This document shows, piece after piece, positions 10,393 through 64,000 of a DNA stretch of 64,000 nt (its first letter is position 1; the number at the start of each line of letters is the position of its first letter). The position numbers and the translations under genes were made by a program. Origin of the DNA: Candidatus Woesebacteria bacterium (lineage in GTDB: Bacteria; Patescibacteriota; Microgenomatia; UBA1400; MFAQ01); NCBI GenBank assembly GCA_035389185.1, contig DAOORK010000001.1, forward strand, positions 129,006 to 193,005. Direction: 5' to 3'. The notes beneath the pieces are model-generated. The model did no database searches and had not been told where the DNA came from. It saw only the letters and a program-made list of their open reading frames with translations.

Positions 10393-10397
10393 AACAA

Positions 10398-14016: not shown

Positions 14017-14038
14017 GTTATTTGAAAGTGGCCGCTGA

Positions 14039-14112
14039 GGGATTCGAACCCCCGACTTCCTCGATGTAAACGAGGCGCTCTAACCAACTGAGCTAAGCGG
14101 CCATGTTAGGTT
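14039..14112 (-). tRNA. tRNA-Val (anticodon TAC)
   Basis: Reverse-complement fold: acceptor GGCCGCT/AGCGGCC, D-arm GCTC-AGTTGGTTA-GAGC, anticodon stem CCTCG/CGAGG loop TTTACAT, T-arm CGGGG-GTTCGAAT-CCCTC. Confidence 0.8.
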
Positions 14113-45805: not shown

Positions 45806-45880
45806 GGGTCAGTAGCTCAGTCGGTTAGAGCACCTGCCTTTTAAGCAGGGTGTCGCGGGTTCGAGTCCCGCCTGACCCAC
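45806..45880 (+). tRNA. tRNA-Lys (anticodon TTT)
   Basis: Acceptor GGGTCAG/CTGACCC, D-arm GCTC-AGTCGGTTA-GAGC, anticodon stem CCTGC/GCAGG loop CTTTTAA, T-arm GCGGG-TTCGAGT-CCCGC. Confidence 0.85.
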
Positions 45881-45883
45881 TTT

Positions 45884-45957
45884 GGTCCCGTCGTCTAGCG
45901 GTCTAGGACGTCAGGTTTTCATCCTGAATATCGCGGGTTCGATTCCCGCCGGGATCA
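45884..45957 (+). tRNA. tRNA-Glu (anticodon TTC)
   Basis: Acceptor GGTCCCG/CGGGATC (one G-T pair), anticodon stem TCAGG/CCTGA loop TTTTCAT, T-arm GCGGG-TTCGATT-CCCGC. Confidence 0.85.
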
Positions 45958-46140
45958 CTAAGTTCAGTTTGTTCCGAGGCGATCCGCAAGGGTCGCTTCG
46001 TTGTATTGATGTATCCGACTAAAATTTTCCTAAATTGATTGAAAATCGCGTTCGAGTCCCGTAAGGGTTGTTATTGGATTGTGGATAATTCTTCAAAAAA
46101 CGTCTATAAATAATAGTAGAGAGCAATCTTTACTCAACAA

Positions 46141-46311
46141 CTATTTGTGTTTTGTTTTATCCACTAGCACAAATTGTTGCCTTTTACCCTGGTTGTTTGG
46201 CGGTGTTTTATCACCTCGACTGAGAGTGTACTCAGTCGTACCACCCGAAGGTCGGTACTGTCCAGAAACTGGAGCAAGTTTGCCTGTATAGGCAATTACT
46301 TTTTTCTGCAT
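46141..46311 (-). CDS. hypothetical small protein (56 aa)
   Basis: ATG preceded by an AGGAGG RBS, internal to the 81-aa track ORF; Gly/Thr-rich. Confidence 0.4.
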   Translation of the reverse strand: MQKKVIAYTGKLAPVSGQYRPSGGTTEYTLSRGDKTPPNNQGKRQQFVLVDKTKHK

Positions 46312-46454
46312 TTCCTTTTTCCTCCTTTCTCGCCGGGCTACGGCGTGCTGGTTGCACCGCTCCTTCGAGAAATTTAGCTGTACCAATAAAGACGCTCTCT
46401 ACTGCGAATAATCTATCACCAAAAATCTAACTTAGCAACTTTTTACTTAGAGTG

Positions 46455-47780
46455 CTAATTATTGATTAAAATATACCTGTTTTTGAGAACGAACCTTGTG
46501 TTAATAAGTGAGAGAATTTCCAATCTTTCTTCTGAAGTTCCTCCCCTGAGAATATGGATCAGGTAGTTCTTCGCCATTGCTTTGAATTCTAGTTTTCCCG
46601 GAATCATTCCATTTTCCCCATCGAACTTACCCAACATATATTCTTGGTGGAGTACATCGGTTTTTAACCTGTGATATCTTTCGATGTCCTCTTGGATTTT
46701 CCGAGAGATGCCAGCCTGATTGTAAGATATTTTGTCGATATGACCAATTATTTGTTTAACGAGATCATCTTCCTCAACATATGGTTCGTTACATTCGTAA
46801 TCTAAATATCTCCGACAGTGGTAGTAGATATGCTTTTTAAACCCTCCTCCCCTTAATTTTCTCAGTTTCTCTTCTGCGGTTACCGAACTTCCGCAAGATC
46901 CACACTTTATTAATGTTTTGAAAGCAAAGATATTTTTGTTCCATGTCTTTGGTACTGTTTCCAGTTGTTTTTGGACTTTCTCGAATAACTCTTTGGTAAT
47001 AAGTGGTTTGTGTTTGCCCTTGTACCAGATGCCACTTCCAGATGGAAATTCAAACTCACCATAATAGAATGGATTTTTGAGAATTGCGTGAACTTTACTC
47101 GTGGGACACAACACACCTTGTCTGGTTTCAAAACCAATTCTATCTAGCCATCTTTTTACCGACCTACCACTGTGACCTTGGACACCAACTCTTTCAAACA
47201 TTTGTTTTACAAATGGGGCCCTAATTGGATCGAGGATAACCAGCTCATCAGTACGGCCATCTCCCTTTTGGTTGAGATATCCCATCGGAGCCATACTTGG
47301 TTTCCAACCTAGACTACATTTGTTTCTTAATCCCCTTTCGACATTTACTCCCTTGTTATCGTTTTCCAATTTGGCTTGGGAGCAGAGGATCATCAGAAGA
47401 AATTTTTCGTTGGGACTATTGGTGAAGGATTGGCTGTAAGTTTGGATGCGGAGTAGTTTCTTCTGGTCCATGAGGTCCACAAGTGTTCCCAGATCACCCG
47501 CATTACGGCTTAGACGATCAGGTGCCCATGTGAGTATTCCGTTGAACTTTCCGGAGCGAATTCCTTTTATTAATTCCACAAATACAGGTCTTGCTCCAGA
47601 TTCTTTGGCTGAATGACTTTCTATTTTTATTTCTTTTACTTTTATGTTTTCTCTCTTAGCCAATACTTTCATTTCGTCAATTTGAGAATCAATGGACATA
47701 ATTTGTCTTTCGTCACTTTCAGAAGACTTGCGGGCGTAGAGACAGTAACTTATTTCCTGTGTTTTTGTGGATGTATCCAT
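46455..47780 (-). CDS. large serine recombinase (integrase)
   Basis: N-terminal resolvase catalytic domain (YARKSS, SIDSQ Ser), recombinase domain, Cys zinc ribbon (CGSCGS...C), coiled-coil C-terminus; 441 aa. Confidence 0.85.
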   Translation of the reverse strand: MDTSTKTQEISYCLYARKSSESDERQIMSIDSQIDEMKVLAKRENIKVKEIKIESHSAKESGARPVFVELIKGIRSGKFNGILTWAPDRLSRNAGDLGTLVDLMDQKKLLRIQTYSQSFTNSPNEKFLLMILCSQAKLENDNKGVNVERGLRNKCSLGWKPSMAPMGYLNQKGDGRTDELVILDPIRAPFVKQMFERVGVQGHSGRSVKRWLDRIGFETRQGVLCPTSKVHAILKNPFYYGEFEFPSGSGIWYKGKHKPLITKELFEKVQKQLETVPKTWNKNIFAFKTLIKCGSCGSSVTAEEKLRKLRGGGFKKHIYYHCRRYLDYECNEPYVEEDDLVKQIIGHIDKISYNQAGISRKIQEDIERYHRLKTDVLHQEYMLGKFDGENGMIPGKLEFKAMAKNYLIHILRGGTSEERLEILSLINTRFVLKNRYILINN

Positions 47781-47813
47781 TACTTATCAATGTACCGCAA
47801 GTTTTCTGTAAGT

Positions 47814-49244
47814 CTAGTCCAGGTATCTAACTCTTGGCTCTCCTTTGCTTGCCTCAGCTATGAAATAGTAAAAACCGAGAGTGAAAGCATCAACTAGATC
47901 ATCGTGTGGCTCTACCCCAAAATGAATAATCTGTCCGATTAGCTCATCGGCTCCATGGACTGGAAAAAGCACTTTACCGTTTTGAATCCAACTACTGGTA
48001 AGTGAGAGTCGACTTCTTTTGTCATTTCCACCGATTGTTATTCCTTTTACGTTTACGCTCTCGGTTTCCAACATTTGGATTAAACTTTTTTGATAAGCAA
48101 CATCTTCTACTAAAACTAAGGGTGAATATTGGAGAAGGGATTGTCGGAGATCATTAATTATTTTGATTGTTTCCGGCATTCCCATTCTTTTATTTACCAT
48201 TGTGGGCATTACCTTCACTTGGATATCTTTGTGGTAACCATACATCAGGAATATTACGATTGCGGTTTTGTCTGCCCTTTGGTTTTCGGAAATAGCAGGA
48301 TCGACAGATATGACGGCACACCTCAGATTTTTTGTATCGATTGGAAGTGTGGAGTCATATCGAGCAATCCACTCCGGTAAAACGACTTGATCACCATCGG
48401 GGATTATTTTAAGCATGAACTCCCGAAGAAAATCGGAATCACTGGCAGTTTTCTTTCTCAATCTTTCAATTGAACGTTTGTCCGTAAACTTCCCCGGCCA
48501 AAGGATTTTGCTTCCCCTCATCAAGGGATACTGTTTATAGATTCCGTCAATTCTTTTCTTGGATATGGCTTTCTTCATCCTCATCATTAGAGAGTCTTCG
48601 TGGACGAGATTACCGATGAAAACAATTTTAGTGTTTTGATCTCCTGAAGGAATAAGCTCCGAGTTTACAAATTGCCAAAGTTTATCTCTTCCTTCTTTCG
48701 TCTTAGCCGACTGCATATCCTCGATATCATCGCAGATGATGAGATCTGGACGGTATTGGCGATGGCGAATACCTCTCATACTTTGTGAAACGGAAACTAC
48801 GGTAATTCTGGCATTGTATCGATCCAAAACTAAACTCTCACTATTCCACTCTCCCTTTTTGGAAGCGAAACTTCCAAAGTCTGTATAAAGTAGTTTGTTT
48901 AACTCCAATTCCGCTTTTATATTTGATAAAGTTTGCTGAGCCTGTTGTTGGGTTTGGCAGACGATCAAAACATATTTCTTTTGTGGCGCACCTACGATTG
49001 ACCAGATCGGGTATGAGAGTGTCATTATGGTCGATTTGGCTGACCCACGGAAGGCAACAATAGCTAGTGTTTTAGTATCGACATTCTCCGTTAAACGAAA
49101 TATTTCCTGTTGGAACTGAGCGGTTTCGTATTTAACAAAAGAAGAGAAATATGTATGGAAAAACCAATAATGTGAACCAAAGGTTACTGATTGCCTTACC
49201 GCTGGATTACCGATGATATTTTCAAAAAGTTTCTGCTTTTCCAT
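47814..49244 (-). CDS. phage terminase large subunit
   Basis: ATPase Walker A-like AFRGSAKST, Walker B LIICDDIED, C-terminal RNase H-like nuclease Asp residues (VISVDPA, LVEDVAYQ, HDDLVDAF). Confidence 0.75.
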   Translation of the reverse strand: MEKQKLFENIIGNPAVRQSVTFGSHYWFFHTYFSSFVKYETAQFQQEIFRLTENVDTKTLAIVAFRGSAKSTIMTLSYPIWSIVGAPQKKYVLIVCQTQQQAQQTLSNIKAELELNKLLYTDFGSFASKKGEWNSESLVLDRYNARITVVSVSQSMRGIRHRQYRPDLIICDDIEDMQSAKTKEGRDKLWQFVNSELIPSGDQNTKIVFIGNLVHEDSLMMRMKKAISKKRIDGIYKQYPLMRGSKILWPGKFTDKRSIERLRKKTASDSDFLREFMLKIIPDGDQVVLPEWIARYDSTLPIDTKNLRCAVISVDPAISENQRADKTAIVIFLMYGYHKDIQVKVMPTMVNKRMGMPETIKIINDLRQSLLQYSPLVLVEDVAYQKSLIQMLETESVNVKGITIGGNDKRSRLSLTSSWIQNGKVLFPVHGADELIGQIIHFGVEPHDDLVDAFTLGFYYFIAEASKGEPRVRYLD

Positions 49245-49656
49245 TTTCTTTGATTGGTTTTTCTTTTATGACTCCTGAAAGCAGAAGTGCTTCTCTTACA
49301 ATTGCCTCTTCATCAGGTGTGAGATCATCACGCAGGTGATTCTGGTCGGAAGAGATTTCCAACTTGGGAATGTATGACTGGTGATGATTTTTGAGCCAGA
49401 AGATGATGGCAGTCATATTCTTGTCTCTTATCGATGAAAGCAACTGCGACTCGGCCATGTCATTAATCATCTCAATGCCTTCTTTGAGAGCTTTATCGCT
49501 TTCCTCTTTGAACTTTTTATCCTCCGACCGCCAACGATAGTAGGTGGCACGGCTAACCCCTGATTTTTCGCAAACGACTTGGACAATTGGTGTCTTTTGC
49601 AACAACTCGATGAGTTTGCTTTTATTTTCTTCTTGACGTTTTTCGATGGTGTTCAT
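49222..49656 (-). CDS. putative terminase small subunit / HTH DNA-binding protein
   Basis: HTH VSRATYYRWR; lies immediately upstream of and overlapping the terminase large subunit. Confidence 0.5.
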   Translation of the reverse strand: MNTIEKRQEENKSKLIELLQKTPIVQVVCEKSGVSRATYYRWRSEDKKFKEESDKALKEGIEMINDMAESQLLSSIRDKNMTAIIFWLKNHHQSYIPKLEISSDQNHLRDDLTPDEEAIVREALLLSGVIKEKPIKENGKAETF

Positions 49657-50978
49657 GTGATTTGTTTAGCTTTTAATCCAGTGAGTCTCTCCCATCTTTT
49701 TTTGATAACCTCAGCGTAGACTGGAGACTTCTCCATGAGATAGCAACGACGTTTCATTTTGGTAGCCGCAATCAAGGTTGACCCGCTGCCACCAAATGGT
49801 TCGACAATCAGGTTACCTCGCTTGGTAAGAACTTTGATGTATGGAATTAATATCTCGGTTGGTTTGGTGCCGAAGATCACACCTTGGCCGGAATGTTTTT
49901 CATCTGAGGCATTAAACTCAATGAAATCTGTTGGTTGTGTTTTCTTTCCTTTCTCATACCCTTCCCATTGAGGTTTGCCAGATATGGCGTAGAGTGCGGT
50001 TTCATATTCTTGCTGGAGTCCGTCTTGTTCTTCCTCGTTGTTGTACTGAATATCCACTTCTTTTGACGCTCCAACCATGGCAATGTCATGTTTGCTGAAG
50101 AACTTATATTTAGCAGAGAAACCTTGATGTCGATTGGGTAAATGCCAAATTATCATATTTTTTACTTTCCAATGTTTTTCCATTTCCCCCCAAATGGTTC
50201 GTAGGTTCTTCCAGTTTTCGTAAACAATGATGGAGAAATGTTCCTTTTGAATATTGGCGATGCTGTTCATCCATTTTTCAGTAAAGTCTAACGGAAGACT
50301 TTCGGTTTCCAAATATCTTCGATCTCTTTTAGCTCCGAATCCTGTTACCGCTTTTCCGTGGCGTTTAGCTTTTAGATAGTCGAGAATGTATGGAGGATCG
50401 GTAAAACACATATCTGCTTTCTCCCCAGCCATCAACTTGAGCCATTCTTCATCGTTGGTGGAATCTCCACACATCAATCTGCTTCCGTCGAGGTCATAAA
50501 TATCACCTTTCTTTATATTTATTTTGGTGATATCCATCTTCAATAGTTCCTTCTGGAGATCAAACTGTTCCGGTGTGTCTTCAATCTCAAAGATTTGATC
50601 TAACTCTTCACTGGAGAAACCAACACTATCCAAAAAAGCAGAATCAAAATCGGCTAACAAACCCCAATCCCATTCACCTGTGTTTTTGTTTAGTCTGAGA
50701 TTTAACTCTTTTTCTTTCTCGATGTCGGGAATATTTACATAGACCACAGGAATTGTTTCGAAGCCCATTTCTTTGGCGACTTCTAACCTGAAATGACCAC
50801 CGATGACAATGTTCTTCCTTTCTGGAGCTTCGTTGACGATGATTGGATCGACCAATCCAAATTTGGTAATACTTTCTTTCAACTGGTCAGCTGATTGTTT
50901 ATCGTGCTTCCTGGGGTTGTATGCCGCAGGATTAAGTTCCTTTATGAAAACTTGGGTTATTTGTATTTGTTTACTCAT
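49653..50978 (-). CDS. ParB-like nuclease domain fused to a DNA methyltransferase (beta-class N4/N6)
   Basis: N-terminal ParB/Srx block (GGHFRLEVAKEMG), motif IV DPPY placed before motif I FGGSGST, so beta-class permutation. Confidence 0.85.
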   Translation of the reverse strand: MSKQIQITQVFIKELNPAAYNPRKHDKQSADQLKESITKFGLVDPIIVNEAPERKNIVIGGHFRLEVAKEMGFETIPVVYVNIPDIEKEKELNLRLNKNTGEWDWGLLADFDSAFLDSVGFSSEELDQIFEIEDTPEQFDLQKELLKMDITKINIKKGDIYDLDGSRLMCGDSTNDEEWLKLMAGEKADMCFTDPPYILDYLKAKRHGKAVTGFGAKRDRRYLETESLPLDFTEKWMNSIANIQKEHFSIIVYENWKNLRTIWGEMEKHWKVKNMIIWHLPNRHQGFSAKYKFFSKHDIAMVGASKEVDIQYNNEEEQDGLQQEYETALYAISGKPQWEGYEKGKKTQPTDFIEFNASDEKHSGQGVIFGTKPTEILIPYIKVLTKRGNLIVEPFGGSGSTLIAATKMKRRCYLMEKSPVYAEVIKKRWERLTGLKAKQIT

Positions 50979-51000
50979 GTTTTTTGAGTAATTGATAATA

Positions 51001-51062
51001 AAAAATGCCTACCTCACAAAAACCTGCTTCAACGCGAAGCGATAAGTTTCTGTGAGGTAGGC
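51001..51062 (-). terminator. large-loop hairpin, probable terminator of the minus-strand operon
   Basis: Perfect 12-bp inverted repeat gcctacctcaca / tgtgaggtaggc around a 32-nt loop, with an A5 run (T-run on the minus strand). Confidence 0.4.
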
Positions 51063-51150
51063 ACGACCGAGGCGAGGCCTCTTCGATAGCTTTGGAGCCA
51101 TCTCCTATCAGGTATTCCTGAAATGAGTGATTCCTACACCACTAATTTAA

Positions 51151-51486
51151 TTATACTGATTTTTTCTGTATTTTTTTCAGGCGCTCTTTTACGTCTTCTC
51201 CAAGAAGAAAGGGTATGCCATTTGGCATAATTATCCGGATGGTCATTCCTTGCTTATTGGCTTTTTCTATTGCTTGAGTAATTTCTGGACCAAAAGGAAT
51301 TGTGAACGTCATTTTCCCTGTCGATTCATCGAGCTTAACATTATCTCTAGTCATAAATGCACGTCCCTGTTGTCCAGTAGATATGGATTTGGAGATAGCT
51401 CTGCCAAATGAAACAGGTTTCCTTACCTCTTGGGTGTGTAGAGAAATATCGGTAAATTGGATATCAAAATATTTTTCATCGGTCAT
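51151..51486 (-). CDS. hypothetical protein
   Basis: 111-aa ORF, last gene of the nuclease-receiver operon. Confidence 0.45.
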   Translation of the reverse strand: MTDEKYFDIQFTDISLHTQEVRKPVSFGRAISKSISTGQQGRAFMTRDNVKLDESTGKMTFTIPFGPEITQAIEKANKQGMTIRIIMPNGIPFLLGEDVKERLKKIQKKSV

Positions 51487-51498
51487 AACTTAATTATA

Positions 51499-51876
51499 TT
51501 AATTTTGACCGTACTTTTTCCCGATTTGGTCTTTGAGTTCTGCCGCGAACTTTTCCAAATCTTGATACTCCTTGTTTATCACAACTTTTACGCCTATTTT
51601 TAGAAGTTCCTCGTTGTATGGTGGGACAGAAGAAATTCCAATTATTTTATCTACTCCAAATTTTTCAAAATCTAATGCATGGAAAGATCCGCCCATGGCA
51701 CAATCACGGTCAAGAAGAATTATGTCGAATTTTAGTTCACTAGGGTTAAGTATCTTTTCGACTTGCTCATAAGTGGAAAAAACTACTGGAGCAAAATCTA
51801 TCTTTGTTTCGAATAATACTCTAAAAATTATCGAGAGCGTCTCCAAATCATCTTCGAGGATAAGCATTGACTTCAT
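51499..51876 (-). CDS. response-regulator receiver-like (CheY-like) domain protein, stand-alone
   Basis: MLILEDD ... ILLDRD pattern (phospho-acceptor Asp position) with alternating beta/alpha periodicity; 125 aa. Confidence 0.4.
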   Translation of the reverse strand: MKSMLILEDDLETLSIIFRVLFETKIDFAPVVFSTYEQVEKILNPSELKFDIILLDRDCAMGGSFHALDFEKFGVDKIIGISSVPPYNEELLKIGVKVVINKEYQDLEKFAAELKDQIGKKYGQN

Positions 51877-53369
51877 TGTCCTTGTTTATCTAAATAGTCT
51901 TTGATAACCATGGTAGCTACACAGTCGTCTTCGTTATACAGAAGAATTCTGTCCATATCGGCCTTGTCTTTGGTTTCAAGATAGTGGTTAAACCATTCAA
52001 TAGACATGGCGCCGGAGGGTGTCTTGTCTCGCCAGCTAAAGCCTAGATACTGAGCAATTTCTTTTAGAGAGTAGCTCATCAAGGGCCAATCGGTATGTTT
52101 GGAAACTACAGAATATAGATCTATTGCTTTTTCTTCACTAAAGAACCAAGCAAGTTCTTCCTCAGTAACCACATCCGGATACTTTTCTCTCATGCGGCGA
52201 TAGGTTGTCTTCTCGTGGTGGGAATAATAGTAAGTAGTAAAGTCGTCTTTGGGTAGTGATCGAATATATTGCCAAAAATTACTCCAGGCTTCTCTTTCTG
52301 ATTCGTCGGTTTTGTCTAATGCAGTAAAGTCTATAAACCTCTCCCCTTTTGGAGAGCGCTCGTATACACCATGAAGATAGACAAAGGCTTGGGTGGGATC
52401 GTCTTCAATATCAAAATATAATTCGTAGCTTGTTTTGGGAAAGTTCATTTTTTCGTAAATGACGGGACTTTTTGTAACTTCCATGATTTTTGATCTTTGA
52501 ACAAACTTTGTGAGTTTTGCCTCTCCCAAACCAAATAAATACTTTTTGTCTTTTTTCTTTTTGGCCAATAGTGTGTCGATGTCCAGGTCAATCAAATCTA
52601 TGTAGCTTTCAATGTCCAAATCTCTTTCTAGGATATCTCTGTTGGCCCTACCGAGACAGAAGATCATACTTGGGTCATGACTCTCTTTTATCCATTTTTT
52701 GCAGCTTGCGTACCATGGGCAAAGTTTGCATTTGCCGGAATATGCTGGTTTGTTTTTTATTTCGTTATTTAAGAGCTTCCCTGCCATTACTTTTGTTTCT
52801 TGGTAAAAGTCCCAGTAAGTTTGAGGTGTTTTTGTGCCAATAGGTTTATCCAAGTCGTATGTAGTTCTCTCGGAGTTAATATCGATAATGGCACCAGAAT
52901 GTTTTTTAGCAAAACCGAGATTGATAAGCACTTCGCAGTAGAGAGCGAGTTGAACCGCATAATGTATTTTGTATTTTCCCTCATTATCATTTTCCTCATC
53001 TACTCCCTCAACTCCCATACCGCTTTTGATGTCGACTGGTAGGTAGGTACCGTCTGGCTGTATTTCTAAGAGGTCCGGAATGCCAAAGAGCTCGCTGTGG
53101 CGAATAGCTCCTTGGTAAATGAGTGGCATTCCTGCATTCATGGCTTCTAGAGTGGCTTTTTCTCTTTCTTTCTCCCCTACTTCTTTGAGATCCAGAATCT
53201 TTCCCAGCTTGCCCACTATATTTTCTTCGTGACTGACTCCTTTTTCCCAAAGCATTTCTACAAAGGGATTTGTATCTGGATTCTTTTCGGCCTTTGGGCC
53301 ATACACATCACGCCAAATACGATGTTCGCACTGGAGGTAGTTATATAGTTTAGATGGTGTGATTTTCAT
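51873..53369 (-). CDS. RecB-family nuclease, TM0106-like (Cas4-like PD-(D/E)xK with Fe-S cysteines, plus a C-terminal RNase H-like domain)
   Basis: N-terminal Cys (YLQCEH), IPDLLEI...VDIK, QLALYCEV (QxxxY), CKLCPWYASC; C-terminal FDIEDD ... YYSHHEKT ... YNEDDC; ATGA overlap with the receiver gene. Confidence 0.55.
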   Translation of the reverse strand: MKITPSKLYNYLQCEHRIWRDVYGPKAEKNPDTNPFVEMLWEKGVSHEENIVGKLGKILDLKEVGEKEREKATLEAMNAGMPLIYQGAIRHSELFGIPDLLEIQPDGTYLPVDIKSGMGVEGVDEENDNEGKYKIHYAVQLALYCEVLINLGFAKKHSGAIIDINSERTTYDLDKPIGTKTPQTYWDFYQETKVMAGKLLNNEIKNKPAYSGKCKLCPWYASCKKWIKESHDPSMIFCLGRANRDILERDLDIESYIDLIDLDIDTLLAKKKKDKKYLFGLGEAKLTKFVQRSKIMEVTKSPVIYEKMNFPKTSYELYFDIEDDPTQAFVYLHGVYERSPKGERFIDFTALDKTDESEREAWSNFWQYIRSLPKDDFTTYYYSHHEKTTYRRMREKYPDVVTEEELAWFFSEEKAIDLYSVVSKHTDWPLMSYSLKEIAQYLGFSWRDKTPSGAMSIEWFNHYLETKDKADMDRILLYNEDDCVATMVIKDYLDKQGQ

Positions 53370-53462
53370 TTAGACAAGGCGACTCCTGTGTTTTATATGC
53401 ACTCTTCGGGTGGTGGCTAAATTATATGCCAGTTATTCATCAATAGAGTTACAATAGAAACT

Positions 53463-56400: not shown

Positions 56401-58325
56401 ACACCTTCCAGCTGAGTGAAGATGGCGACAATGAAAAATTATTTTGTGATGCGTTAGCAGAAAACTCAGAGAGACTTGAACGTCAGAAAAATACACCTCT
56501 TAAAGTGATCATGGGAAACCCACCATATTCGGTTGGCCAAACTTCAGCAAATGACGCGTCACAAAATCAAAGCTATCCAAAACTAGAAAACCGAATCGGA
56601 CAGACATATGTATCTCAAATCACCGATAACACCCTCAAGCAATCACTATATGATGCATATATTAAGGCGTTCCGCTGGGCCACTGATCGCCTTGATAAAG
56701 ATGGTGGAATTATCTGTTTTGTTTCTAATGGAGCCTGGCTTGACGGAAAAGCTACCTCTGGATTTAGAAAAACAATTGAAAATGAGTTTACTAGTGTTTA
56801 TGTCTTTAATCTTCGAGGTAACCAACGAACAAATGGAGAAGAATCTCGTCGCGAGGGGGGGAAAATATTCGGAAGTGGCTCTCGTACACCGATTTCTATC
56901 ACACTACTAGTCAAAAATCCAAACAAACATAACGATAAAGCTGAGATTTTGTATCACGACATTGGAGACTATCTAAGTCGGGAAGAAAAACTGAAAATTA
57001 TATCTGATTTTAAGACAGTATCAAATCAAAAATTAGTCTGGAAAACGCTTAATCCAAACAATGAGGGAGATTGGATAAACAAACGTCATAGCATTTTTGA
57101 TACTTATGTAGAGCTTGGTTCAAAAGCTAAAAATAAGAACTCGTGCTTTGATCTGTATTCTGCTGGAGTTATTACGCATCGCGATGCATGGGTTTACGAC
57201 TTCAGCGAAATTAAGCTGGAAGATAAACTAACCAGAATGATTTCCTTTTATAACAGTGAGGCAAAAAAGCTGCAAGTGATGAGGCAAAAAAATCATAGAG
57301 TATCTGTCGAGAAAAGTGTTAATAAAGATTCTAAACTTATCAAATGGGATCGTAGGCTGTATGAACATGCTGATAAATCTGTAGTTCACACCTTTAATAG
57401 TGCTGATATTTATACAACGCTATATCGCCCATTCTCGAAACAACATTATTATTTCAATAAAAATTTAAGCTGGAGCAGATACTTACAACCGAAGCTATTT
57501 CCCTACCCCACGAGCAGTAATCTTGTGATCTGCACCACAGGACCAGGAGCAAACAAGGATTTTTCTGCATTAATGAGCAATGTTGTCACTGACTTCCATA
57601 CGTTAATGAATAATCAATCTTTTCCGCTATATTACTATGAAAAGAATGAACAAAATATTCCTTCTCTTTTCGATTTAGAAAAGAATAACGAATATAACAA
57701 GAGAGATAGTATAAGTGATTACGTTTTGCGTAAAGCACAAACACAATATTCTGATAATGAAATCAGCAAAGAAGATATCTTTTATTACATATATGGACTG
57801 CTTCATAGCATGGACTATCGAATTGAGTTTGCAAATGATTTAAAAAAAATGTCACCTAAAATTCCCCTTGTTGAAACAATAAGTGATTTCAAGAAATTTA
57901 GTAAAGCAGGTAGAAAATTGGGAGAACTACATGTAAACTACGAAAAAGTTCCCCCATATGAAGGTGTTAGGGTGAGCGGGACACAGCACAATAACTATCT
58001 TGTTGAGAAACTCAAATTCATTAAGAAGGGACAACGTGACACAATAATATTTAACAATCAAATAAAGATTGAGAATATCCCCGAAATTGCTTATAAGTAT
58101 GTTGTAAATGGGAAGAGTGCAATTGAATGGATTGTCGAGAAATATCAGATTAAAACGGATAAGGAAAGCGGAATAGTTAATGATCCAAATGATTGGGCGA
58201 AGGAAGTTGGAAATCCCAGATATATTCTTGATTTGCTTCTGAGTGTAATTAATTTAAGTGTTCAAACAGTGGACATTGTAAATAGCTTACCCAAGCTAAG
58301 TTTTGACACTGGGACAAAAGAATAA
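53463..58325 (+). CDS. Type ISP-like single-polypeptide restriction-modification enzyme (Mrr nuclease, SF2 helicase-like ATPase, gamma-class N6-adenine methyltransferase, target-recognition domain)
   Basis: N-terminus GQDVGIDLVA...IQCKCY (Mrr PD-QxK); LIMACGTGKTFT (motif I), VCDEAHRTTG (DEAH), QSVGRVMR (motif VI); DPFTGTGTF (methyltransferase motif I) then NPPY; 1620 aa. Confidence 0.7.
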   Translation: MTFNKILDRFRSESFSERDKGFKFERLIQAYLYTDPKYTHLQKIWLWGEFPFRSSFGGQDVGIDLVAKTFEGEYWAIQCKCYQEDNRINKEEVDTFLATSSRSFKDEQLAEIKFSHCLWVSTTNNWSSNANESLQNQNPPVTRINLSDLQEASVDWSKISEGMYGEKARTPKKQLKYHQKEALDKAINYFKNDNRGKLIMACGTGKTFTSLKIAEELTNHTGTILFLVPSIALLGQSLREWTSDAAEEINPIAICSDSEITKDKKKNEDTDTYSVVDLAIPASTNMRDILKQFEYFEMAKKKGLTVVFSTYQSIDVISQTQKRLESIGSKYQKFDLIVCDEAHRTTGVTISGEDESSFVKVHDNAFINADKRIYMTATPRLYGEESKRKAEETSAVLCSMDDEALYGKEIYRIGFGEAVERDLLSDYKVLILTLSENDVTPEVQKILQNPEHEIGVDDASKLIGCINAMSKQIISDKGTVNTNDPDPMRRAVAFTSSIKISKKITDSFNEIGETYAKSVPELKQQTLVNLNSKHIDGSMSATDRNELMSWLKAEPNDSQEARVLTNVRCLSEGVDVPTLDAVMFLSAKNSQIDVVQSVGRVMRKSPGKQYGYIIIPIVIPTDVKPEDALKDNDRYKVVWTVLNALRAHDDRFNAIVNKIDLNKNRPVQIIIGRPDPDGDGDPFNDSDESKKALKGSQLALQFDQLQNAIYAKMVQKVGDRQYWENWAKSVADIAERQIVRITKIVDEDDSAHMGFREFVRGLRKNINPSITEQQAIEMLSQHIITKPVFEALFEGYSFVSNNAVSISMQKALDAIETKAIEDVDAELLQGFYKSVRKRAEGIDNSEGKQRIIVELYDKFFKTAFPKLVEQLGIVYTPVEVVDFIIHSINDVLQNEFGRSLSDENVNILDPFTGTGTFITRLLQTGVIKHQDLERKYKGEIFANEIVLLAYYIAAVNIENAYHDLLKKDVYESFEGIVLTDTFQLSEDGDNEKLFCDALAENSERLERQKNTPLKVIMGNPPYSVGQTSANDASQNQSYPKLENRIGQTYVSQITDNTLKQSLYDAYIKAFRWATDRLDKDGGIICFVSNGAWLDGKATSGFRKTIENEFTSVYVFNLRGNQRTNGEESRREGGKIFGSGSRTPISITLLVKNPNKHNDKAEILYHDIGDYLSREEKLKIISDFKTVSNQKLVWKTLNPNNEGDWINKRHSIFDTYVELGSKAKNKNSCFDLYSAGVITHRDAWVYDFSEIKLEDKLTRMISFYNSEAKKLQVMRQKNHRVSVEKSVNKDSKLIKWDRRLYEHADKSVVHTFNSADIYTTLYRPFSKQHYYFNKNLSWSRYLQPKLFPYPTSSNLVICTTGPGANKDFSALMSNVVTDFHTLMNNQSFPLYYYEKNEQNIPSLFDLEKNNEYNKRDSISDYVLRKAQTQYSDNEISKEDIFYYIYGLLHSMDYRIEFANDLKKMSPKIPLVETISDFKKFSKAGRKLGELHVNYEKVPPYEGVRVSGTQHNNYLVEKLKFIKKGQRDTIIFNNQIKIENIPEIAYKYVVNGKSAIEWIVEKYQIKTDKESGIVNDPNDWAKEVGNPRYILDLLLSVINLSVQTVDIVNSLPKLSFDTGTKE

Positions 58326-58326
58326 T

Positions 58327-59757
58327 ATGGAATGGCTAGTCCTCATGGGAGGAGTTCTATTAGTCGGATATTTTCTCGGTAAATCAGATAAGTCTGGTAG
58401 AGAGGTTAGCACTCCTGATCCAGTCAAATCTGTACAATCAGGTCAATTTCCTAAGAAACTAAATGTTAAGCATGAGGAAATTGACAGCATTAATCTTAGT
58501 GATGAGCAATCTGAAATATTTAACTTACTAGAAACGACAAATAATGCTTATTATGTAACTGGAAAAGCAGGCACTGGTAAATCCATACTATTAAAATATT
58601 TTGTTACCCATACTGGAAAAAGAGTTGTTGTAGTTGCTCCTACAGGAGTGGCTGCTCTAAATATTGGTGGCCAGACAATACATTCACTTTTTAAGATGCC
58701 ATTTGATATCGATTTTAATGATATCAAGGTTGATTACAGAACCAGAGAGCTATTGAGAAATATCGATACGGTAGTTATTGATGAAGTATCAATGGTTCGT
58801 GCTGATTTGATGGAGGCAATGAATATTAAACTGCAAATATCCAGAGGAAATACTCTGCCGTTTGGTGATGTCCAAATGATAATGTTTGGTGATTTGTATC
58901 AATTACCTCCAGTCGTAAGTGATGGCGAATTACAAAGATACTTAAATCATAAGTTTGGTGGACACTATTTCTTTAACGCACCGTCAATAAACAAAGCTAA
59001 TCTGCAAACCTATGAACTTAAAAAAGTATTTCGGCAGAAAGATGCTGAATTTATAAGAATATTGGATGCCGTAAGGAGAGGTGTAATTAAAGAAATTGAC
59101 TTAGAGGCACTTAACGAACGTTCTCGTGCCGATAAACCTACTGATGGATATGTAACTCTGGCAGGAACAAATGAAACTGTGTCGTATATCAACCATAAAA
59201 ACTTAGATAAACTCCCTGGAGAAGAAAAGGTATATGAGGCTGAAATATGGGGAGATATCACAGAGAATTCGTTTCCAACTGAAAAGAAGTTGAGACTTAA
59301 AATTGGTGCTCAAATTATGATGCTAAAAAATGACACTGAGAAACCGAGGCGATGGGTAAATGGAACACTTGGCGTAATTACAAAATTAAGTCAAGACGTG
59401 GTTCGCGTAAACATTGATGGAGTTGAGCACACCATCACACCCGCAAACTGGGACAAAATTCAATACGAATACGACCCAGATAATCGAGAGCTAAACAAAA
59501 AAGTTGTAAGTTCTTTTAAGCAATTACCATTACGATTGGCTTGGGCTATAACAATCCATAAATCACAAGGGCAAACATATAAAACAATTGCAATTGATTT
59601 AACAGGTGGTGCGTTTGCTCACGGACAGACATATGTTGCACTCAGTAGATGTGTCTCGCTAGAAGGAATATATCTTAATGCTCCAATCAAGAAGGAGGAC
59701 ATCATTGTTGACCCTGACATTATTGAATTTATGAGCAAGGCGGTGGTACTTAATTAA
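58327..59757 (+). CDS. PIF1/RecD-like SF1B helicase
   Basis: VTGKAGTGKS Walker A, VVIDEVSM Walker B, C-terminal LAWAITIHKSQGQTY...VALSRC (PIF1 motifs V and VI); ATG 1 nt after the upstream stop. Confidence 0.7.
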   Translation: MEWLVLMGGVLLVGYFLGKSDKSGREVSTPDPVKSVQSGQFPKKLNVKHEEIDSINLSDEQSEIFNLLETTNNAYYVTGKAGTGKSILLKYFVTHTGKRVVVVAPTGVAALNIGGQTIHSLFKMPFDIDFNDIKVDYRTRELLRNIDTVVIDEVSMVRADLMEAMNIKLQISRGNTLPFGDVQMIMFGDLYQLPPVVSDGELQRYLNHKFGGHYFFNAPSINKANLQTYELKKVFRQKDAEFIRILDAVRRGVIKEIDLEALNERSRADKPTDGYVTLAGTNETVSYINHKNLDKLPGEEKVYEAEIWGDITENSFPTEKKLRLKIGAQIMMLKNDTEKPRRWVNGTLGVITKLSQDVVRVNIDGVEHTITPANWDKIQYEYDPDNRELNKKVVSSFKQLPLRLAWAITIHKSQGQTYKTIAIDLTGGAFAHGQTYVALSRCVSLEGIYLNAPIKKEDIIVDPDIIEFMSKAVVLN

Positions 59758-59795
59758 TAATAATTGGAATTGTTAAGACATTGGCGGTGCCGATG

Positions 59796-61313
59796 TTATT
59801 TCTTTACTTCAGGGTTAAGGAAGAATTCTGGACCTTGGGAATCGTAAAGGCTTTTGAGTTCCAGAATATATGACTTGTTAAGTAGGTAGGTACTGCCGTC
59901 TTTGACAGTTTCCCAAGTTCCCTCGTAGGTTTTTCGTATCTGTTCGCCATTGACCCACTCTGCCATGCCAAACATGACATAAACTAGATTTGGTTTGATT
60001 TCCTCAACACGGAACACCTCAACACTTATGACATTTGGGAAGCGAGCTGTCCACTCTGCATAGGTTGATTTGGTTTTGTAGGATGGACTCAAAAGATCGT
60101 AGCAACCCTGAGTGTCTCTGGCTTTTAGAAGATAGTAGTAGGCATAAACTGATGCCTTTGGTGATGCACCTGGCTCTAGCTTTATTTTTTTGGGTTCCTC
60201 TTTGGTAGCTAACTTTGCGGTATCTAAAGTGTCTCCACTAATAATTAGTGAAGTACCCGAAGTTGTCATTGTATTTATGCCGACAAAGTCACCACACTTG
60301 TCAAATACTGGTCCACCACTCATTCCTGATACTAGAGCTGAAGAGAATTGATAATATTCCGCCTTATCTTGTGGCATGACACGAACATCTACGTATCGAA
60401 TAGGGAGAACTGTTGGTGATCCCTTAATATCTGAACCCAATGGATAGCCAAATGATAGGAACTCTTCACCAGAAACCATTTTTGCCTTATTTCCATTAAC
60501 AACATACCCTGGCTCGTTTATATTTATTGTAATGATGGCAATATCGTAGTCTTTGGACATTTCTACCTTTGTAGGAGTAATGAACTCTCCTGTTGGAAGA
60601 ACTATTTTTGGAAAATCTTCACCTTCTACTACATGTCTATTGGTAATAACTGTAGTTTGGTCTATGAAGAAACCTGAACCCTCTGAATACGAGCCGATAA
60701 TCCTGACTACTTTTGGTGAAATCTTTGTCTTTGTGTCTTGGTATGAACAGAAAAATTTATCATATCCATTTAATTGAGAATACAGGCGGTATTCAAGAGT
60801 AGAGATGTAAAGAAGCGAAACCAAAAGAACAAACGAGAACATAAAGTACTGTGGTTTTTTGAAGATGAGCTTGAAGTAGGCTGGAATTGACAAGGCTATT
60901 ACAAATATACTCGCGAGTCCGATTGGAAGTGCAAGACTGAAGAAGTAACGATAATGATCCGCTGCTAACACAGAGGCATTTACGTCTGGAGAGGTGTAGA
61001 TGAAGGCTATAGGAATGGATATCAGCCCTACAATACCCAACGGGACTGAGAAAAAACGAGAAATTTTTCTGAGTAATTTGAAGGATATGATAAATAAGGC
61101 TATTGGGAGATAGAAATAGGCAAGAATTTCAAAAAAGTTATTTGACTCTTCGAAGTTGAAATTAGTTTTTGAACAGTACCACCAGAATATTAAATATACC
61201 CAGATGTAGAGCTTCCAATTAAACAGTATCCCAAAAAATCTACTGAGCTTGGGTCTAACTCCAAATTGAACCCGTAAAGATGTCCCTACTTTTCTTAATA
61301 TTCGTGATGTCAC
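59796..61313 (-). CDS. membrane-anchored trypsin-like serine protease (S1 family)
   Basis: Multi-TM N-terminus; catalytic triad context TNRHVV (His), DYDIAII (Asp), GMSGGPVF (Ser); extra C-terminal domain. Confidence 0.6.
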   Translation of the reverse strand: MTSRILRKVGTSLRVQFGVRPKLSRFFGILFNWKLYIWVYLIFWWYCSKTNFNFEESNNFFEILAYFYLPIALFIISFKLLRKISRFFSVPLGIVGLISIPIAFIYTSPDVNASVLAADHYRYFFSLALPIGLASIFVIALSIPAYFKLIFKKPQYFMFSFVLLVSLLYISTLEYRLYSQLNGYDKFFCSYQDTKTKISPKVVRIIGSYSEGSGFFIDQTTVITNRHVVEGEDFPKIVLPTGEFITPTKVEMSKDYDIAIITININEPGYVVNGNKAKMVSGEEFLSFGYPLGSDIKGSPTVLPIRYVDVRVMPQDKAEYYQFSSALVSGMSGGPVFDKCGDFVGINTMTTSGTSLIISGDTLDTAKLATKEEPKKIKLEPGASPKASVYAYYYLLKARDTQGCYDLLSPSYKTKSTYAEWTARFPNVISVEVFRVEEIKPNLVYVMFGMAEWVNGEQIRKTYEGTWETVKDGSTYLLNKSYILELKSLYDSQGPEFFLNPEVKK

Positions 61314-61379
61314 TGTAATGGTATTGTGTATCTTTCTGTATAAAATTACTAGAGGTTTGTTGTGCTTGAAGTGTAAGAT

Positions 61380-62465
61380 ATGGATATGTCCAAATACATC
61401 CTAACTAGTGATGGAAAGATTCATGTAAGAACTGATAACGTGAGCTTGCTTGATGTTGATGAGAAATTTGAAGAAGCTGCGAGATTGATAATATTGGAAG
61501 GAAGAGGTTCGGCGTCGATATTACAGAGAAGATTAGAGGTCGGGTATGCAAGAGCCGCGAGAATATTGGATCAACTTGAACAAGCAGGAATTCTAGGACG
61601 ATCCGAGGGGAATAAACCTAGAGAAGTGATTATTAGCTCTTTTGATGAATTTATAAAAAGTGATGGAAAAGAGGTTGGACCAGAAGAAGTATTTCCAGAG
61701 GATATTAAGAAGGAGTGGGCACCAAAAGAGATTGCAGATGCAGTTATGTCAAATCTACAGAAAGAAGCCTTATATGTGGAGGGAATAATGATTCCGGTGG
61801 GAATGGAGAAAAAGAGAATGATTTCTGCTTCACTGGACAATCTTGGTCATATCTATATTTTTAATAGCCCAATGTGTAACTCGATTGGACTACTTAAATC
61901 GCAACTGGAATTTCTAACTAATACATATAGCCCAGATGCACTTAAGCTGATTGTGAGTGATGATACTAGATTGTTTTCGAACTCTACAATTGCTGACTCA
62001 CCTCACATGCTGACTCCGGTAATTTATGACCAGAGCAAAGTCCAAAACGCACTTGGTTGGGTGAGTGCTGAGATTGAAAGAAGATTCCGAATTCTTCAAG
62101 AGACAGGTGTGAGTAGTTTTGACGCTTATGGAAAAACAGGGAATCCCCCACTGCCTAGAATTATTTGTGTTGTTAGTAGTACTTCTAGCAGACTGGCATA
62201 TAACGAAGATTGTCATTATGGTATTGAAAACATACTAAATTCTGGTCATTTGGTTGGTGTGCATTTGATTGTTGCATCGCCACTAATTGAGAGGAAGTTC
62301 TCTAAACTGATGACTTCGTTCCCCACAAAGATTATCTTTAAAACATTCTCTGCTTCACAAGCAGACTTGCTAGGAACTGATGATGCATTCGATCTGACCA
62401 GTGGTGATGAGTTTGTATTTGTACCGGCATATGGTGAGATACAAAAATTGAAAGTGAATGGATAA
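61380..62465 (+). CDS. FtsK/SpoIIIE-like protein with an N-terminal gamma domain and a degenerate (Walker A-less) motor domain
   Basis: EAARLIILEGRGSASILQRRLEVGYARAARILDQLEQAGILG matches the FtsK gamma winged helix; HLVGVHLIVASP...KIIFKTFSASQADLLG matches the FtsK motor C-terminus, but GxxGxGKS is absent and the Walker B region reads VVSSTSS. Confidence 0.55.
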   Translation: MDMSKYILTSDGKIHVRTDNVSLLDVDEKFEEAARLIILEGRGSASILQRRLEVGYARAARILDQLEQAGILGRSEGNKPREVIISSFDEFIKSDGKEVGPEEVFPEDIKKEWAPKEIADAVMSNLQKEALYVEGIMIPVGMEKKRMISASLDNLGHIYIFNSPMCNSIGLLKSQLEFLTNTYSPDALKLIVSDDTRLFSNSTIADSPHMLTPVIYDQSKVQNALGWVSAEIERRFRILQETGVSSFDAYGKTGNPPLPRIICVVSSTSSRLAYNEDCHYGIENILNSGHLVGVHLIVASPLIERKFSKLMTSFPTKIIFKTFSASQADLLGTDDAFDLTSGDEFVFVPAYGEIQKLKVNG

Positions 62466-63126
62466 AGGGATGTGGGACAAGTTGATGAATACAAATTGGT
62501 GGGAGAAATTTGTAAAGTTTGTATTTGAAGGATTGAGAAAATTATTAGTCTTGGTTGGCAATTTAATTGTTAAGATTCAAGCATTTGTTCATAGCGGTGA
62601 GTGGACGAAGAAACATTTGTCTTTTGTTAAGGAGGGAAATAAGTTCAAGTTTGTTGTAAAAAGTCATGACGATTTAGTTGATGAGGTGGAAATAGAGATA
62701 GCTAAGTACAAAGGAAAGAGATGGGGCAAGAAGTTCATTAAGTTTGTTTTAGAACAGGCATTGTCGGGGTGTAACTTTGTAGTAATTGAGAGCGACAATG
62801 TGTTTGTACAGTTTTGGACTGGGAAAGGCAGACTGGAGATGGATATACCTTTAGTAAAGGGAAATGGCTTGAGGAAGTACTACTACACCGTGATTGGATT
62901 ACTCACCGACATGAATTACTTTAAGTATCCATTTACTAGAACAGGTATTCCTACGATCCTCAAAGTGCCGGAACATTTTACTTTTCGAGTAGATGAGGAA
63001 GAAGGTTTTACTAAGGTAATTGGATATTTTGATAAGAGGACTGATCAGGCGGTTGAATTTGTGGATAGGTTGTTTAGGGAAGTTTATGAGGTGAAGAATA
63101 AGGTGCTGGAGATTAAGGTTGGGTAA
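62458..63126 (+). CDS. hypothetical protein
   Basis: 222-aa ORF overlapping the FtsK-like gene by 8 nt (co-operonic). Confidence 0.45.
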   Translation: MDKGMWDKLMNTNWWEKFVKFVFEGLRKLLVLVGNLIVKIQAFVHSGEWTKKHLSFVKEGNKFKFVVKSHDDLVDEVEIEIAKYKGKRWGKKFIKFVLEQALSGCNFVVIESDNVFVQFWTGKGRLEMDIPLVKGNGLRKYYYTVIGLLTDMNYFKYPFTRTGIPTILKVPEHFTFRVDEEEGFTKVIGYFDKRTDQAVEFVDRLFREVYEVKNKVLEIKVG

Positions 63127-63181
63127 CTTTGGTTGCTGGAATATACATCAAGTGGTTTTTTCAAATTTATATTTACTAAAA

Positions 63182-64000
63182 CTATCTACTAAAGGCATCT
63201 CTAAATAGTTTCCAGCACGCGTAACTTGTAAAATTATAAATTGCCCCTTTCAGTACTAGTAGACTAATGTTGCTTTCAACTTTGTGCATATCGCCAAAAT
63301 ATATTGAACTAAAATCATTATGAAAATCGCTGTATTTAACTGCCAATTCACCTTTATCTAATCCAGAATTGCTTGTTATACCCTCGATAAATTTAAGTAG
63401 TCCAGGTTTTTTCTCCTTTTTAACGATAGGAATAGCCATTGGAAGAAGTTTTTTGCCAATTTCTATTACATCAGCGCTTTTTCCAGATCCATCTCTTTGA
63501 CTAAGTGCTTCGACTACATGGAGACACCCTGATTCATAAAGTTCCTTAATTGTTTTTCTCCCCTTTATTTTTTCAGCTATTTCCTTTAGTCGGCTTTCGT
63601 TTGATATAAGTTCATCTTGTAAATCCTTAGCGTAGACCTGTTCTCTTGAAATAAAAATTGCTCTCACACACCGAGTGAATATTTTTCTGGCGAAGCTAAT
63701 ATGATTTAAATGTTCATCAGTTGAATTCCTACCTCTGTATAGAGTGTTAGGTTCCTCCTTTCCATGGACAATTTTTGAACGTTGTTCGTAAAAGTTTTTC
63801 ACCCAATGATTCATTTCTGGTGTTTCCCCCAACAATGCCATTATGTTTGATGACAATGTAGCCTGAATCGCTTCAGACGGTGAATTGAATAGTGCTTCAA
63901 AGGCAACTGCTAAACTAGTAAATCTTTCCAGATCATCGACCTCTGGATCAACCTTGAAAGATCGGTTAAACCAGTCAAACGCCCTAAGATACCGAGCAAT
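63182..64000 (-). CDS. hypothetical protein (N-terminus outside window)
   Basis: The reading frame stays open from 63856 to the window edge; the track start is an internal TTG. Confidence 0.45.
   Translation of the reverse strand: MARYLRAFDWFNRSFKVDPEVDDLERFTSLAVAFEALFNSPSEAIQATLSSNIMALLGETPEMNHWVKNFYEQRSKIVHGKEEPNTLYRGRNSTDEHLNHISFARKIFTRCVRAIFISREQVYAKDLQDELISNESRLKEIAEKIKGRKTIKELYESGCLHVVEALSQRDGSGKSADVIEIGKKLLPMAIPIVKKEKKPGLLKFIEGITSNSGLDKGELAVKYSDFHNDFSSIYFGDMHKVESNISLLVLKGAIYNFTSYACWKLFRDAFSR

Follow-up and report, generated by a model that had tools for sequence, protein, structure and literature searches.

Staphylococcal cassette chromosome elements (SCC; SCCmec and its relatives) are islands moved by large serine recombinases (LSRs) that sit at the 3' end of a conserved gene, form tandem arrays with repeated ends, exchange their cargo and carry no transfer genes. 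Bacteria of the candidate phyla radiation (CPR), whose genomes are tiny, account for a large part of bacterial diversity, and their phages, mobile elements and defence systems are scarcely described. Only one phage and a few defence systems are known from Patescibacteria (PMC12366544), and the prophages treated in papers on CPR phages are ordinary ones (PMC6509639, PMC13059738). Among the phage satellites, for which we follow the core definitions of phage-inducible chromosomal islands (PICIs) and capsid-forming PICIs (cfPICIs) given in PMC10085698, those known to lack capsid genes carry the small terminase subunit (TerS) alone (PMC10085698, PMC9618062). Here we describe a stretch of 64,000 nucleotides (the window) from a Candidatus Woesebacteria contig (DAOORK010000001.1, positions 129,006 to 193,005), the right-hand part of which is occupied by an inserted element, element A, that encodes both the small and the large terminase subunit (TerL). 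There is little doubt that element A, inserted at the 3' end of a tRNA-Glu(UUC) gene, is a mobile defence island that moves by a serine recombinase and belongs to a recurrent CPR family; the fuller explanation, that such an island has its own terminase and is packaged in the capsids of a helper, seems to us, taken as a whole, evenly poised.

The housekeeping stretch that fills the left of the window closed with RuvB, RuvA and RuvC and was followed by two host tRNA genes on the plus strand, both located with ARAGORN: tRNA-Lys(UUU) (45806..45880), which adjoins the insertion site and is also found in the empty-site relative described below, and tRNA-Glu(UUC) (45884..45958). The inserted DNA began at 45955-45959, in the last bases of tRNA-Glu. 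Nucleotide homology to a copy of the element in another locus (L175) broke off at 45955, and this endpoint corresponds to the end of the tRNA acceptor stem, with …CCGCCGGGA to the left of the break and TCACTAAGTTCAG to the right; the 3' end of the tRNA gene, at which …CCGCCGGGA is followed by TCAC, is the left recombination junction (attB half). The GC content was 41.3% in the 46 kb to the left (standard deviation 1.1% in 5-kb windows), 38.2% in element A, 33.9% in the remnants beyond it and 42.9% in the right flank. An earlier note on this DNA, made from the letters alone, had placed a switch from housekeeping to island genes at about 46.1 kb beside the tRNA genes and had proposed a check of GC content. 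The switch is real, with the RuvC/RuvA/RuvB genes on its left and a fall in GC across it, but the insertion starts in the last bases of tRNA-Glu and not at the tRNA genes as such.

The right boundary lay beyond the window. The locus was extended rightward by 9.1 kb with Joint Genome Institute contig Ga0116242_10000013, which was identical to the window over an overlap of 11.5 kb, and the sequence covered by the analysis amounted to about 73 kb of the 538-kb contig. An empty site was present in locus L256, whose RuvC is 82% identical to that of the window and in which the gene order is transporter operon, 148-aa gene, u97 homologue, tRNA-Glu, tRNA-Lys and RuvC. At the L256 junction the tRNA-Glu gene runs from …GGGATCAC into AGGTAAGACGCAAATT (…GGGATCAC into AGGTAAGACGCAAATTAAAAAGGAGG, directly followed by the start codon of u97), and the host gene next after the tRNA is u97, then the MacB operon. 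Homology of the window genome to this flank resumed at extended coordinate ~68,685, about 4.7 kb past the window end, and the inserted DNA was therefore taken to run from 45,959 to ~68,685 (22.7 kb). The host genes to the right of it encode the 97-aa u97, the 202-aa r202, an adenylate-kinase-like (ADK-like) protein and a MacB/ABC/YknX transporter operon. Extension of the contig and comparison with an empty site, both suggested in the earlier note, thus agreed in giving an island bounded by host genes, with no structural genes on the way to the right boundary. The junctions were sharp, and no direct or inverted repeat of at least 11 nt was found between the outer ones, as would fit a serine recombinase. 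Looked up as an exact protein, RuvC led only to contigs that bear the island, and a scan of genome contigs for RuvC gave relatives of at most 74% identity, of which L013 had no synteny and L011 had a different LSR island in the slot; finding the empty site needed the 82%-identical homologue.

Several further features of the flanks were noted. The r202 and ADK-like genes (extended 69083-70373; 16626-17916 in locus L004) lie between u97 and the MacB operon and are absent from L256; this pair is a separate two-gene indel beside the island, and an ADK-like gene also flanks a different island in L011. The Logan assembly of SRR4244858 breaks in tRNA-Lys (~45833-45851), separating the island contig from the RuvC contig, probably as a result of repeated tRNA sequence and not as evidence of excision. 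Nine more tRNA genes (Gly, Leu, Arg, Gln, Gly, Phe, Leu, Leu and Val), on both strands at 265-14102 of the window, are unrelated to the island.

At the tRNA-proximal edge of element A, and convergent with tRNA-Glu, was the gene for an LSR of 441 aa (46455..47780, minus strand). Its Resolvase (1.2e-18), Recombinase (7e-16) and Zn_ribbon_recom (8.5e-9) domains were all above the Pfam threshold, it matched the integrase family phrog_95 (2.4e-59), and its N-terminal motif, YARKSS…Q, contains Ser. The protein is the predicted integrase/excisionase of element A, and orthologues of it (43-51% identity) go with TerL in related loci. Next to it was the gene for TerL (476 aa; 47814..49244, minus strand), comprising an ATPase and an RNase H-like nuclease, which matched phrog_38 (3.5e-74) over residues 23-470 with weak Pfam hits. 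The Walker A (RGSAKST) and Walker B (DLIICDD) motifs and the nuclease Asp residues were invariant in 23 diverse homologues, and in searches with an AlphaFold2 model based on 23 homologues (pLDDT 86) the top PDB matches were all phage large terminases (PhiV-1, T4 gp17, D6E, T7, HK97 and Sf6). Judged by its motifs and its modelled fold, therefore, TerL is apparently functional. Overlapping the TerL gene by 23 nt was that of a TerS-like helix-turn-helix (HTH) protein of 144 aa (49222..49656, minus strand), for which six of the nine PHROGs matched were terS families (1e-8 to 2.5e-5), and overlapping this in turn by 4 nt was the gene for a ParB_N-N6_N4 methyltransferase fusion of 441 aa (49653..50978, minus strand; Pfam N6_N4_Mtase 5.7e-21 and ParB_N 5.3e-11; phrog_498 6.8e-81). 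All four of the genes named in the earlier note, for the LSR, TerS, TerL and the ParB-methyltransferase, were thus confirmed in place by Pfam, PHROGs and the AlphaFold2 model.

The remaining core genes, all on the minus strand, were less readily assigned. A conserved open reading frame (ORF) of 56 aa (46141..46311), on the side of the recombinase that faces the end of the element, was called as a gene in all assemblies and is kept in L175, and had no family match. Nor was there a family match for a conserved 111-aa protein (51151..51486), which is common to L175 and a further relative, L177, and has homologues in the same position in 8 loci, or for a 125-aa protein (51499..51876) common to L175; a by-eye impression that the latter is a receiver domain was dropped, as Pfam gave it no support. 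A nuclease of 498 aa with PD-(D/E)XK and RNase_H_2 domains (51873..53369; Pfam RNase_H_2 5.6e-28, PDDEXK_1 6e-7; weak Cas4/DruK matches in PADLOC) was the last gene of the block common to L175, nucleotide homology stopping at 53360.

Genes for a virion were sought throughout the insertion. No portal was matched by PHROGs or Pfam among the ORFs at 45.9-68.7 kb, and no HK97-fold major capsid, tail or lysis gene by Pfam, PHROGs or PADLOC among the ORFs of the insertion, a result that for the small ORFs without a family holds at the level of profiles; the latter gave no match in PADLOC, Pfam (E up to 1) or a PDB sequence search. The only ORF of a size suitable for a capsid protein (462 aa) encodes a HEPN-domain protein. 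As a positive control, the same PHROGs library found portals (1e-77 to 1e-118) and a major head protein (2e-72) in related phages. The statement of the earlier note that no capsid or tail genes follow to the right therefore stands for all three profile collections. Nor did element A yield a match to the primase, Rep or replication initiator families, the only related gene being a Pif1/Dda-like helicase in the cargo, or contain a capsid-remodelling gene. No HTH regulator of the AlpA/MerR/Stl type was found in the window copy; its relatives L091 and L094 carry HTH_17/MerR-like genes.

The same architecture recurred in a large number of loci. TerL had 2253 homologues at E<=1e-10, and the best 120 of these were 46-96% identical to it; the few named sources among those 120 were Parcubacteria, Moranbacteria, Pacebacteria and 'Patescibacteria group', and several of the 120 lay on contigs of 0.1-1.2 Mb. 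In a set of 84 loci (80 metagenome loci, three context loci and the window) the methyltransferase cluster was present in 78 and TerS in 77, always immediately upstream of TerL and on the same strand, and an LSR was present in 45; all remaining gene clusters occurred in no more than 11 loci each. Once IMG/VR loci were added, a TerL identity of at least 42% was reached in 104 loci, mostly long CPR contigs. For the 65 of these with at least 3 kb downstream, a portal or major capsid protein (MCP) gene was found in none and an LSR in 52, and in a neighbour-joining tree the 104 TerLs formed one exclusive clade, with all portal-linked TerLs outside it. Hidden Markov models (HMMs) of our own for portal and MCP matched in 9 of the 19 loci in the group with 30-42% TerL identity and in no Mu-like prophage, and we give their results little weight for that reason.

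The genes around the core were predominantly of defence type. Four loci, annotated from precomputed Pfam results (L091, L092 and L094) or family scans (L090), showed the core without a virion gene amid Type I and MmeI-type restriction, SNF2/PLD, DruA, NurA with DUF87, SduA_C, HATPase_c_3 and Dcm genes. In L090 (6816-7268), which is from IMG/VR, Type I HsdS/HsdM genes come after the recombinase, along with a divergent RuvC-like gene and a gene for a Ser/Thr kinase. Since ORFs between TerL and the LSR are certainly internal to the element, 76 such ORFs from 33 loci were considered separately; Type I, IIG and III restriction-modification dominated, and the others included BglII, four reverse transcriptases, a ThsB TIR protein, an Ltp lipoprotein and an S24 peptidase. 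A tRNA gene lay within 1.2 kb of the LSR 3' end for 11 of the 42 LSRs with enough flank, compared to about 1.5 expected from the tRNA density of the loci, and the nearest tRNA was convergent with the LSR in 20 out of 20 cases. Across the family the elements measured 8-20 kb, from ~8 kb in L177 to 19.4 kb for the window copy.

Comparison with the closest relatives indicated that these elements move. In L175 the core, from the nuclease through the recombinase and the 56-aa ORF (53,360 down to 45,955 of the window), was 88% identical at the nucleotide level, TerL being 96% identical, yet it was located at a site with neither a tRNA gene nor RuvC and with a different cargo, in which a 697-aa Mod-like methyltransferase, a 942-aa Res-like helicase and a 1510-aa helicase replace the Type ISP enzyme of the window copy. 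The RuvC of the L175 host is in a different neighbourhood and is 68% identical to that of the window, and since the core is far more alike than the host RuvCs, the element must move between lineages. In L177 (TerL 90% identical) nucleotide homology ended at window coordinate 47,278, within the gene for the recombinase; the C-terminal, DNA-binding half of this protein has been swapped, and with it, presumably, its target specificity. In L011 (RuvC 74% identical) the tRNA-Glu slot was held by a different LSR (27% identical) with a small cargo.

The LSR in L011 belongs to a second, unrelated family (L011 7662-9200; L175 18995-20602), in which the 3' end of the gene overlaps the 3' half of tRNA-Glu; the L011 and L175 members are 25% identical overall, but their last 15 residues, whose codons lie on the complement of the tRNA, are 87% identical. 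At 1-4400 of L092 a family member abuts the homologue of the YknX/ABC/MacB/150-aa operon, here in a host that is only distantly related (MacB 48% identical), so the same chromosomal neighbourhood has been colonised repeatedly.

The origin of the packaging genes was approached through related phages. In IMG/VR phages with a TerL 34-39% identical to that of element A, TerL is followed by a portal, a Mu-F-like head protein, a protease and an MCP, and in one of them, L201, the ParB-methyltransferase, TerS and TerL genes lie directly upstream of the portal and capsid genes. The same gene trio ahead of portal and capsid in L201 means that the trio in element A is an inherited packaging module and no new combination; phages of the L201 type are likely the lineage ancestral to the module and are possibly also the helper lineage. 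The closest TerLs of GenBank phages were Mu-like (Mannheimia, Bacillus BalMu-1, Helicobacter, Ralstonia and Pseudomonas phages; 22-28% identical) and of the phrog_38/Terminase_6C type. In IMG/VR Mu-like prophages (TerL ~27% identical) TerL is followed by unannotated ORFs of ~525 and ~430 aa, the sizes expected of portal and head proteins.

The cargo of element A began on the plus strand, beyond the nuclease, with a Type ISP restriction-modification enzyme of 1620 aa (53463..58325; Pfam Type_ISP_C 3.9e-104, ISP_coupler 1e-46, Mrr_cat_2 8e-45, ResIII and Helicase_C), which PADLOC matched end to end (residues 1-1616, 2257 bits) and in which Pfam did not report the methyltransferase domain separately. 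It was followed by a superfamily 1 helicase of Pif1/Dda type (58303..59757, plus strand; Pfam PIF1 1.7e-32; phrog_325 7.7e-90; Walker A at residue 87) and a trypsin-like protease of 505 aa (59796..61313, minus strand; Pfam Trypsin_2 1.9e-19; PADLOC protease-domain matches), the N-terminus of which was judged hydrophobic by eye. Next came a protein with an FtsK-gamma domain and a degenerate FtsK-like domain (61380..62465, plus strand; Pfam FtsK_gamma 1.5e-24, FtsK_SpoIIIE 6e-8), whose sequence has no G/AxxxxGK[ST] (Walker A) motif and whose gamma (DNA-reading) domain is N-terminal instead of C-terminal, and then a 222-aa protein without a family match (62458..63126, plus strand). The last gene in the window encodes the 462-aa HEPN-domain protein on the minus strand, its 3' part lying in the window (63182..64000) and the gene reaching to 64570; it has an RSKIVH (Rx4H) motif and is identical to a protein (P0241) that NCBI names 'HEPN domain-containing protein [Candidatus Woesebacteria bacterium]'. 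Genes of defence type, by PADLOC match or NCBI name, are thus clustered in element A: the Type ISP enzyme, the HEPN protein, the Cas4/DruK-like nuclease and the protease.

Beyond the HEPN gene the extension contained a 214-aa gene, two DUF5677-like genes, a 209-aa gene and an SNase-like gene, and the insertion as a whole is predicted to be made up of the complete element A (45,959 to ~65,370; 19.4 kb), a remnant B and a region C. Remnant B (~65,368-67,250; 1.9 kb) was a decayed relative with the same kind of ends and the two DUF5677-like genes but without a recombinase, and region C, with the 209-aa and SNase-like genes, had no recognisable ends. The left-end sequence of element A (the P' arm, ~125 nt; 45955..46077) is 88% identical to the end of the L175 element, contains a terminator-like hairpin at 45975-46000 and was repeated with 76% identity at extended 65,368-65,492. 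To the left of this second copy lay a conserved right-end sequence of ~130 nt, common to the far end of L177 (the 8-kb relative), of which a third, degenerate copy was present at extended 67,057-67,200. At the internal junction the order is right-end(A)-TCAC-left-end(B). A search of IMG/VR with the conserved end sequence gave no match. A T-arm-like motif, TCGCGTTCGAGTCCCGTAAGGGT, occurs ~90 nt inside the left end (window 46046-46068, extended 65459-65481 and L175 ~13185-13210); it is conserved in all three left-end copies, and could have been left behind by a captured tRNA end or belong to the recombinase site.

Taken together, these observations suggest a mechanism by which the island could spread. 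The LSR would excise and integrate the element by cutting within or beside the TCAC that closes the tRNA acceptor stem. TerS would recognise a packaging site on the element, and cleavage there might depend on the linked methyltransferase; in phage P1, Dam methylation conditions cleavage of pac. TerL would then cut the element DNA and pump it into the procapsids of a helper phage, the helper being a member of the related lineage in which the methyltransferase-TerS-TerL module is followed by portal and capsid genes. Packaging straight from the integrated state is also conceivable, by analogy, because the nearest characterised TerLs are Mu-like. The element would in this way spread as a satellite that supplies the whole terminase and not TerS alone, and its cargo (the Type ISP enzyme, HEPN protein, nucleases, helicase and protease) would pay its keep through protection of the host. 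For the packaging step itself, with its dependence on a helper, we would put the chances slightly short of even. A still broader proposal is that the CPR/Patescibacteria hold phylum-wide 'terminase-only' satellites, with TerS, TerL and the ParB-methyltransferase and no virion genes, which use a motor of their own to take over procapsids of related phages and are a major vehicle in spreading restriction and anti-phage systems; this we offer tentatively, as possible but on the whole somewhat doubtful.

A number of points weigh against packaging in a helper. The packaging is an inference, and the helper phages are candidates. A TerL without its cognate portal is unusual and may have another function. 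No replication initiator, repressor or excisionase was recognisable in the window copy, and no circular contig with terminal repeats and no contig with an attP junction was found among all the loci fetched. The clade-wide absence of virion genes rests mainly on the gene-cluster analysis and the Pfam annotation of seven loci, our portal HMM being insensitive (it missed the presumed portals, the unannotated ~525-aa ORFs after TerL, in the Mu-like prophages), and the TerL tree is a neighbour-joining tree without bootstrap support.

The main rival explanation, itself compatible with a satellite lifestyle, is that the methyltransferase-TerS-TerL module is kept mainly to interfere with packaging, by competing for, mis-cutting or mis-loading the procapsids and concatemers of related phages, with transfer a by-product or achieved by other routes. 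The constant company of defence cargo would suit such a device, known satellites sabotage packaging by their helpers and so protect their hosts (PMC11417361, PMC10085698), and there is a prophage system with terminase as its target (bioRxiv 10.1101/2025.02.27.640495). However, the strict conservation of an intact nuclease and ATPase and of a tightly coupled TerS is more than interference alone would need; we regard interference as unlikely, if the strongest of the alternatives. An exapted, non-packaging function is less probable again. Here the methyltransferase, HTH protein and terminase-fold ATPase-nuclease would act as a restriction-like or replication/segregation system, as might be suggested by the strict linkage of the methyltransferase to the ATPase-nuclease in 78 of the 84 loci and by the lack of a portal in cis for TerL. 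Against this, the same three genes occur in the same order ahead of portal and capsid genes in a true phage, L201, and the best matches of the small protein are to terS families, which makes exaptation improbable.

The earlier note had left a choice between a satellite or PICI-like element and a degraded prophage carrying defence cargo, in preference to an intact phage. The distinction from an intact phage was borne out and the satellite-like reading supported; a degraded prophage, in which packaging genes were left after the loss of the structural genes and defence genes accumulated around them, appears distinctly improbable. It is true that this TerL lineage descends from phage terminases and that remnant B shows that such elements decay at this site, but the core ORFs are all intact with invariant catalytic residues, the architecture without structural genes is found in 104 loci of a single clade, and the near-identical copy in L175 occupies another site in another host. 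Independent decay would not repeatedly yield the same four genes. It is very improbable that the terminase loads particles encoded elsewhere in the host chromosome, in the manner of a gene transfer agent: no observation supports this directly, although the ~73 kb covered leaves space for distant structural genes on the 538-kb contig, and a module carried on a mobile element in hosts of different CPR classes fits poorly with a fixed chromosomal gene set. An ordinary intact prophage with structural genes just past the window, as the presence of TerS and TerL might have led one to expect, is ruled out by the extension, which reaches u97, the ADK-like gene and the MacB operon without a virion gene, and by L256, which fixes the boundary at ~68,685.

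A mobile defence island that is packaged by its own terminase would, if real, explain how CPR genomes gain and swap immunity. It would also be a new kind of phage parasite, which needs only the shell from another phage and has a complete packaging motor of its own; its way of hijacking would differ from that of both the TerS-only and the capsid-forming satellites known to date. The IMG/VR phage lineage with methyltransferase, TerS and TerL next to portal and capsid genes provides helpers that can be tested, and the recombinases, a quarter of them beside tRNA genes, are a ready set of natural integrases; for the window copy the junctions are defined, and a close relative, L177, documents a natural swap of the C-terminal domain.

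Element A resembles PICIs (e.g. the Staphylococcus aureus pathogenicity islands) in being an island integrated by a conserved gene, with TerS and accessory or defence cargo and without tail or lysis genes, in its size (8-20 kb across the family), and in having a site-specific integrase at one end, although this is of the large serine type and not the usual tyrosine type. Unlike PICIs, it has no AlpA/Stl-type regulator, primase-replicase or capsid-morphogenesis gene and adds TerL and the linked ParB-methyltransferase. The lack of the regulator, the primase-replicase and a capsid-remodelling gene, together with the serine recombinase, keeps it out of the PICIs as strictly defined. The cfPICIs are known satellites that, like element A, encode TerL together with TerS, but they also encode capsid, portal, protease and head-tail adaptor/connector proteins (PMC10085698), none of which was found in element A or its clade. 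The PICI-like elements (PLE) of Vibrio cholerae, satellites that depend on the virion proteins of a helper, share the large serine recombinase and the protection of the host; in contrast, they use the packaging motor of the helper (PMC11417361), have a replication initiator of their own and reside in an unrelated phylum. No RepA-type initiator of the PLE kind was matched in element A by Pfam or PHROGs, and PLE, with its ICP1-specific hijacking genes, belongs to an unrelated pairing of host and phage. Tycheposons and the marine virion-encapsidated integrative mobile elements (bioRxiv 10.1101/2020.12.28.424599; PMC9618062) are likewise tRNA-adjacent in streamlined genomes, some with serine recombinases and some PICI-like with TerS, and form tandem arrays with defence or adaptive cargo. 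They differ in carrying TerS or a capsid gene, usually with tyrosine recombinases and replication modules, and no core of TerL plus methyltransferase has been reported in them.

In a literature search of incomplete coverage we found no described CPR element with a terminase/serine-recombinase core. Element A thus appears to be a defence island of the satellite or hitcher type, its novelty being limited by that coverage and its packaging inferred from gene content. SCC elements, finally, differ from it in having no terminase genes and in targeting rlmH and not a tRNA gene. They share with element A the large serine recombinase, the insertion at the 3' end of a gene, the tandem array with repeated ends, the exchangeable cargo and the lack of transfer genes, and the SCC arrays of staphylococci are the obvious analogy for tandem arrays built by a serine recombinase.

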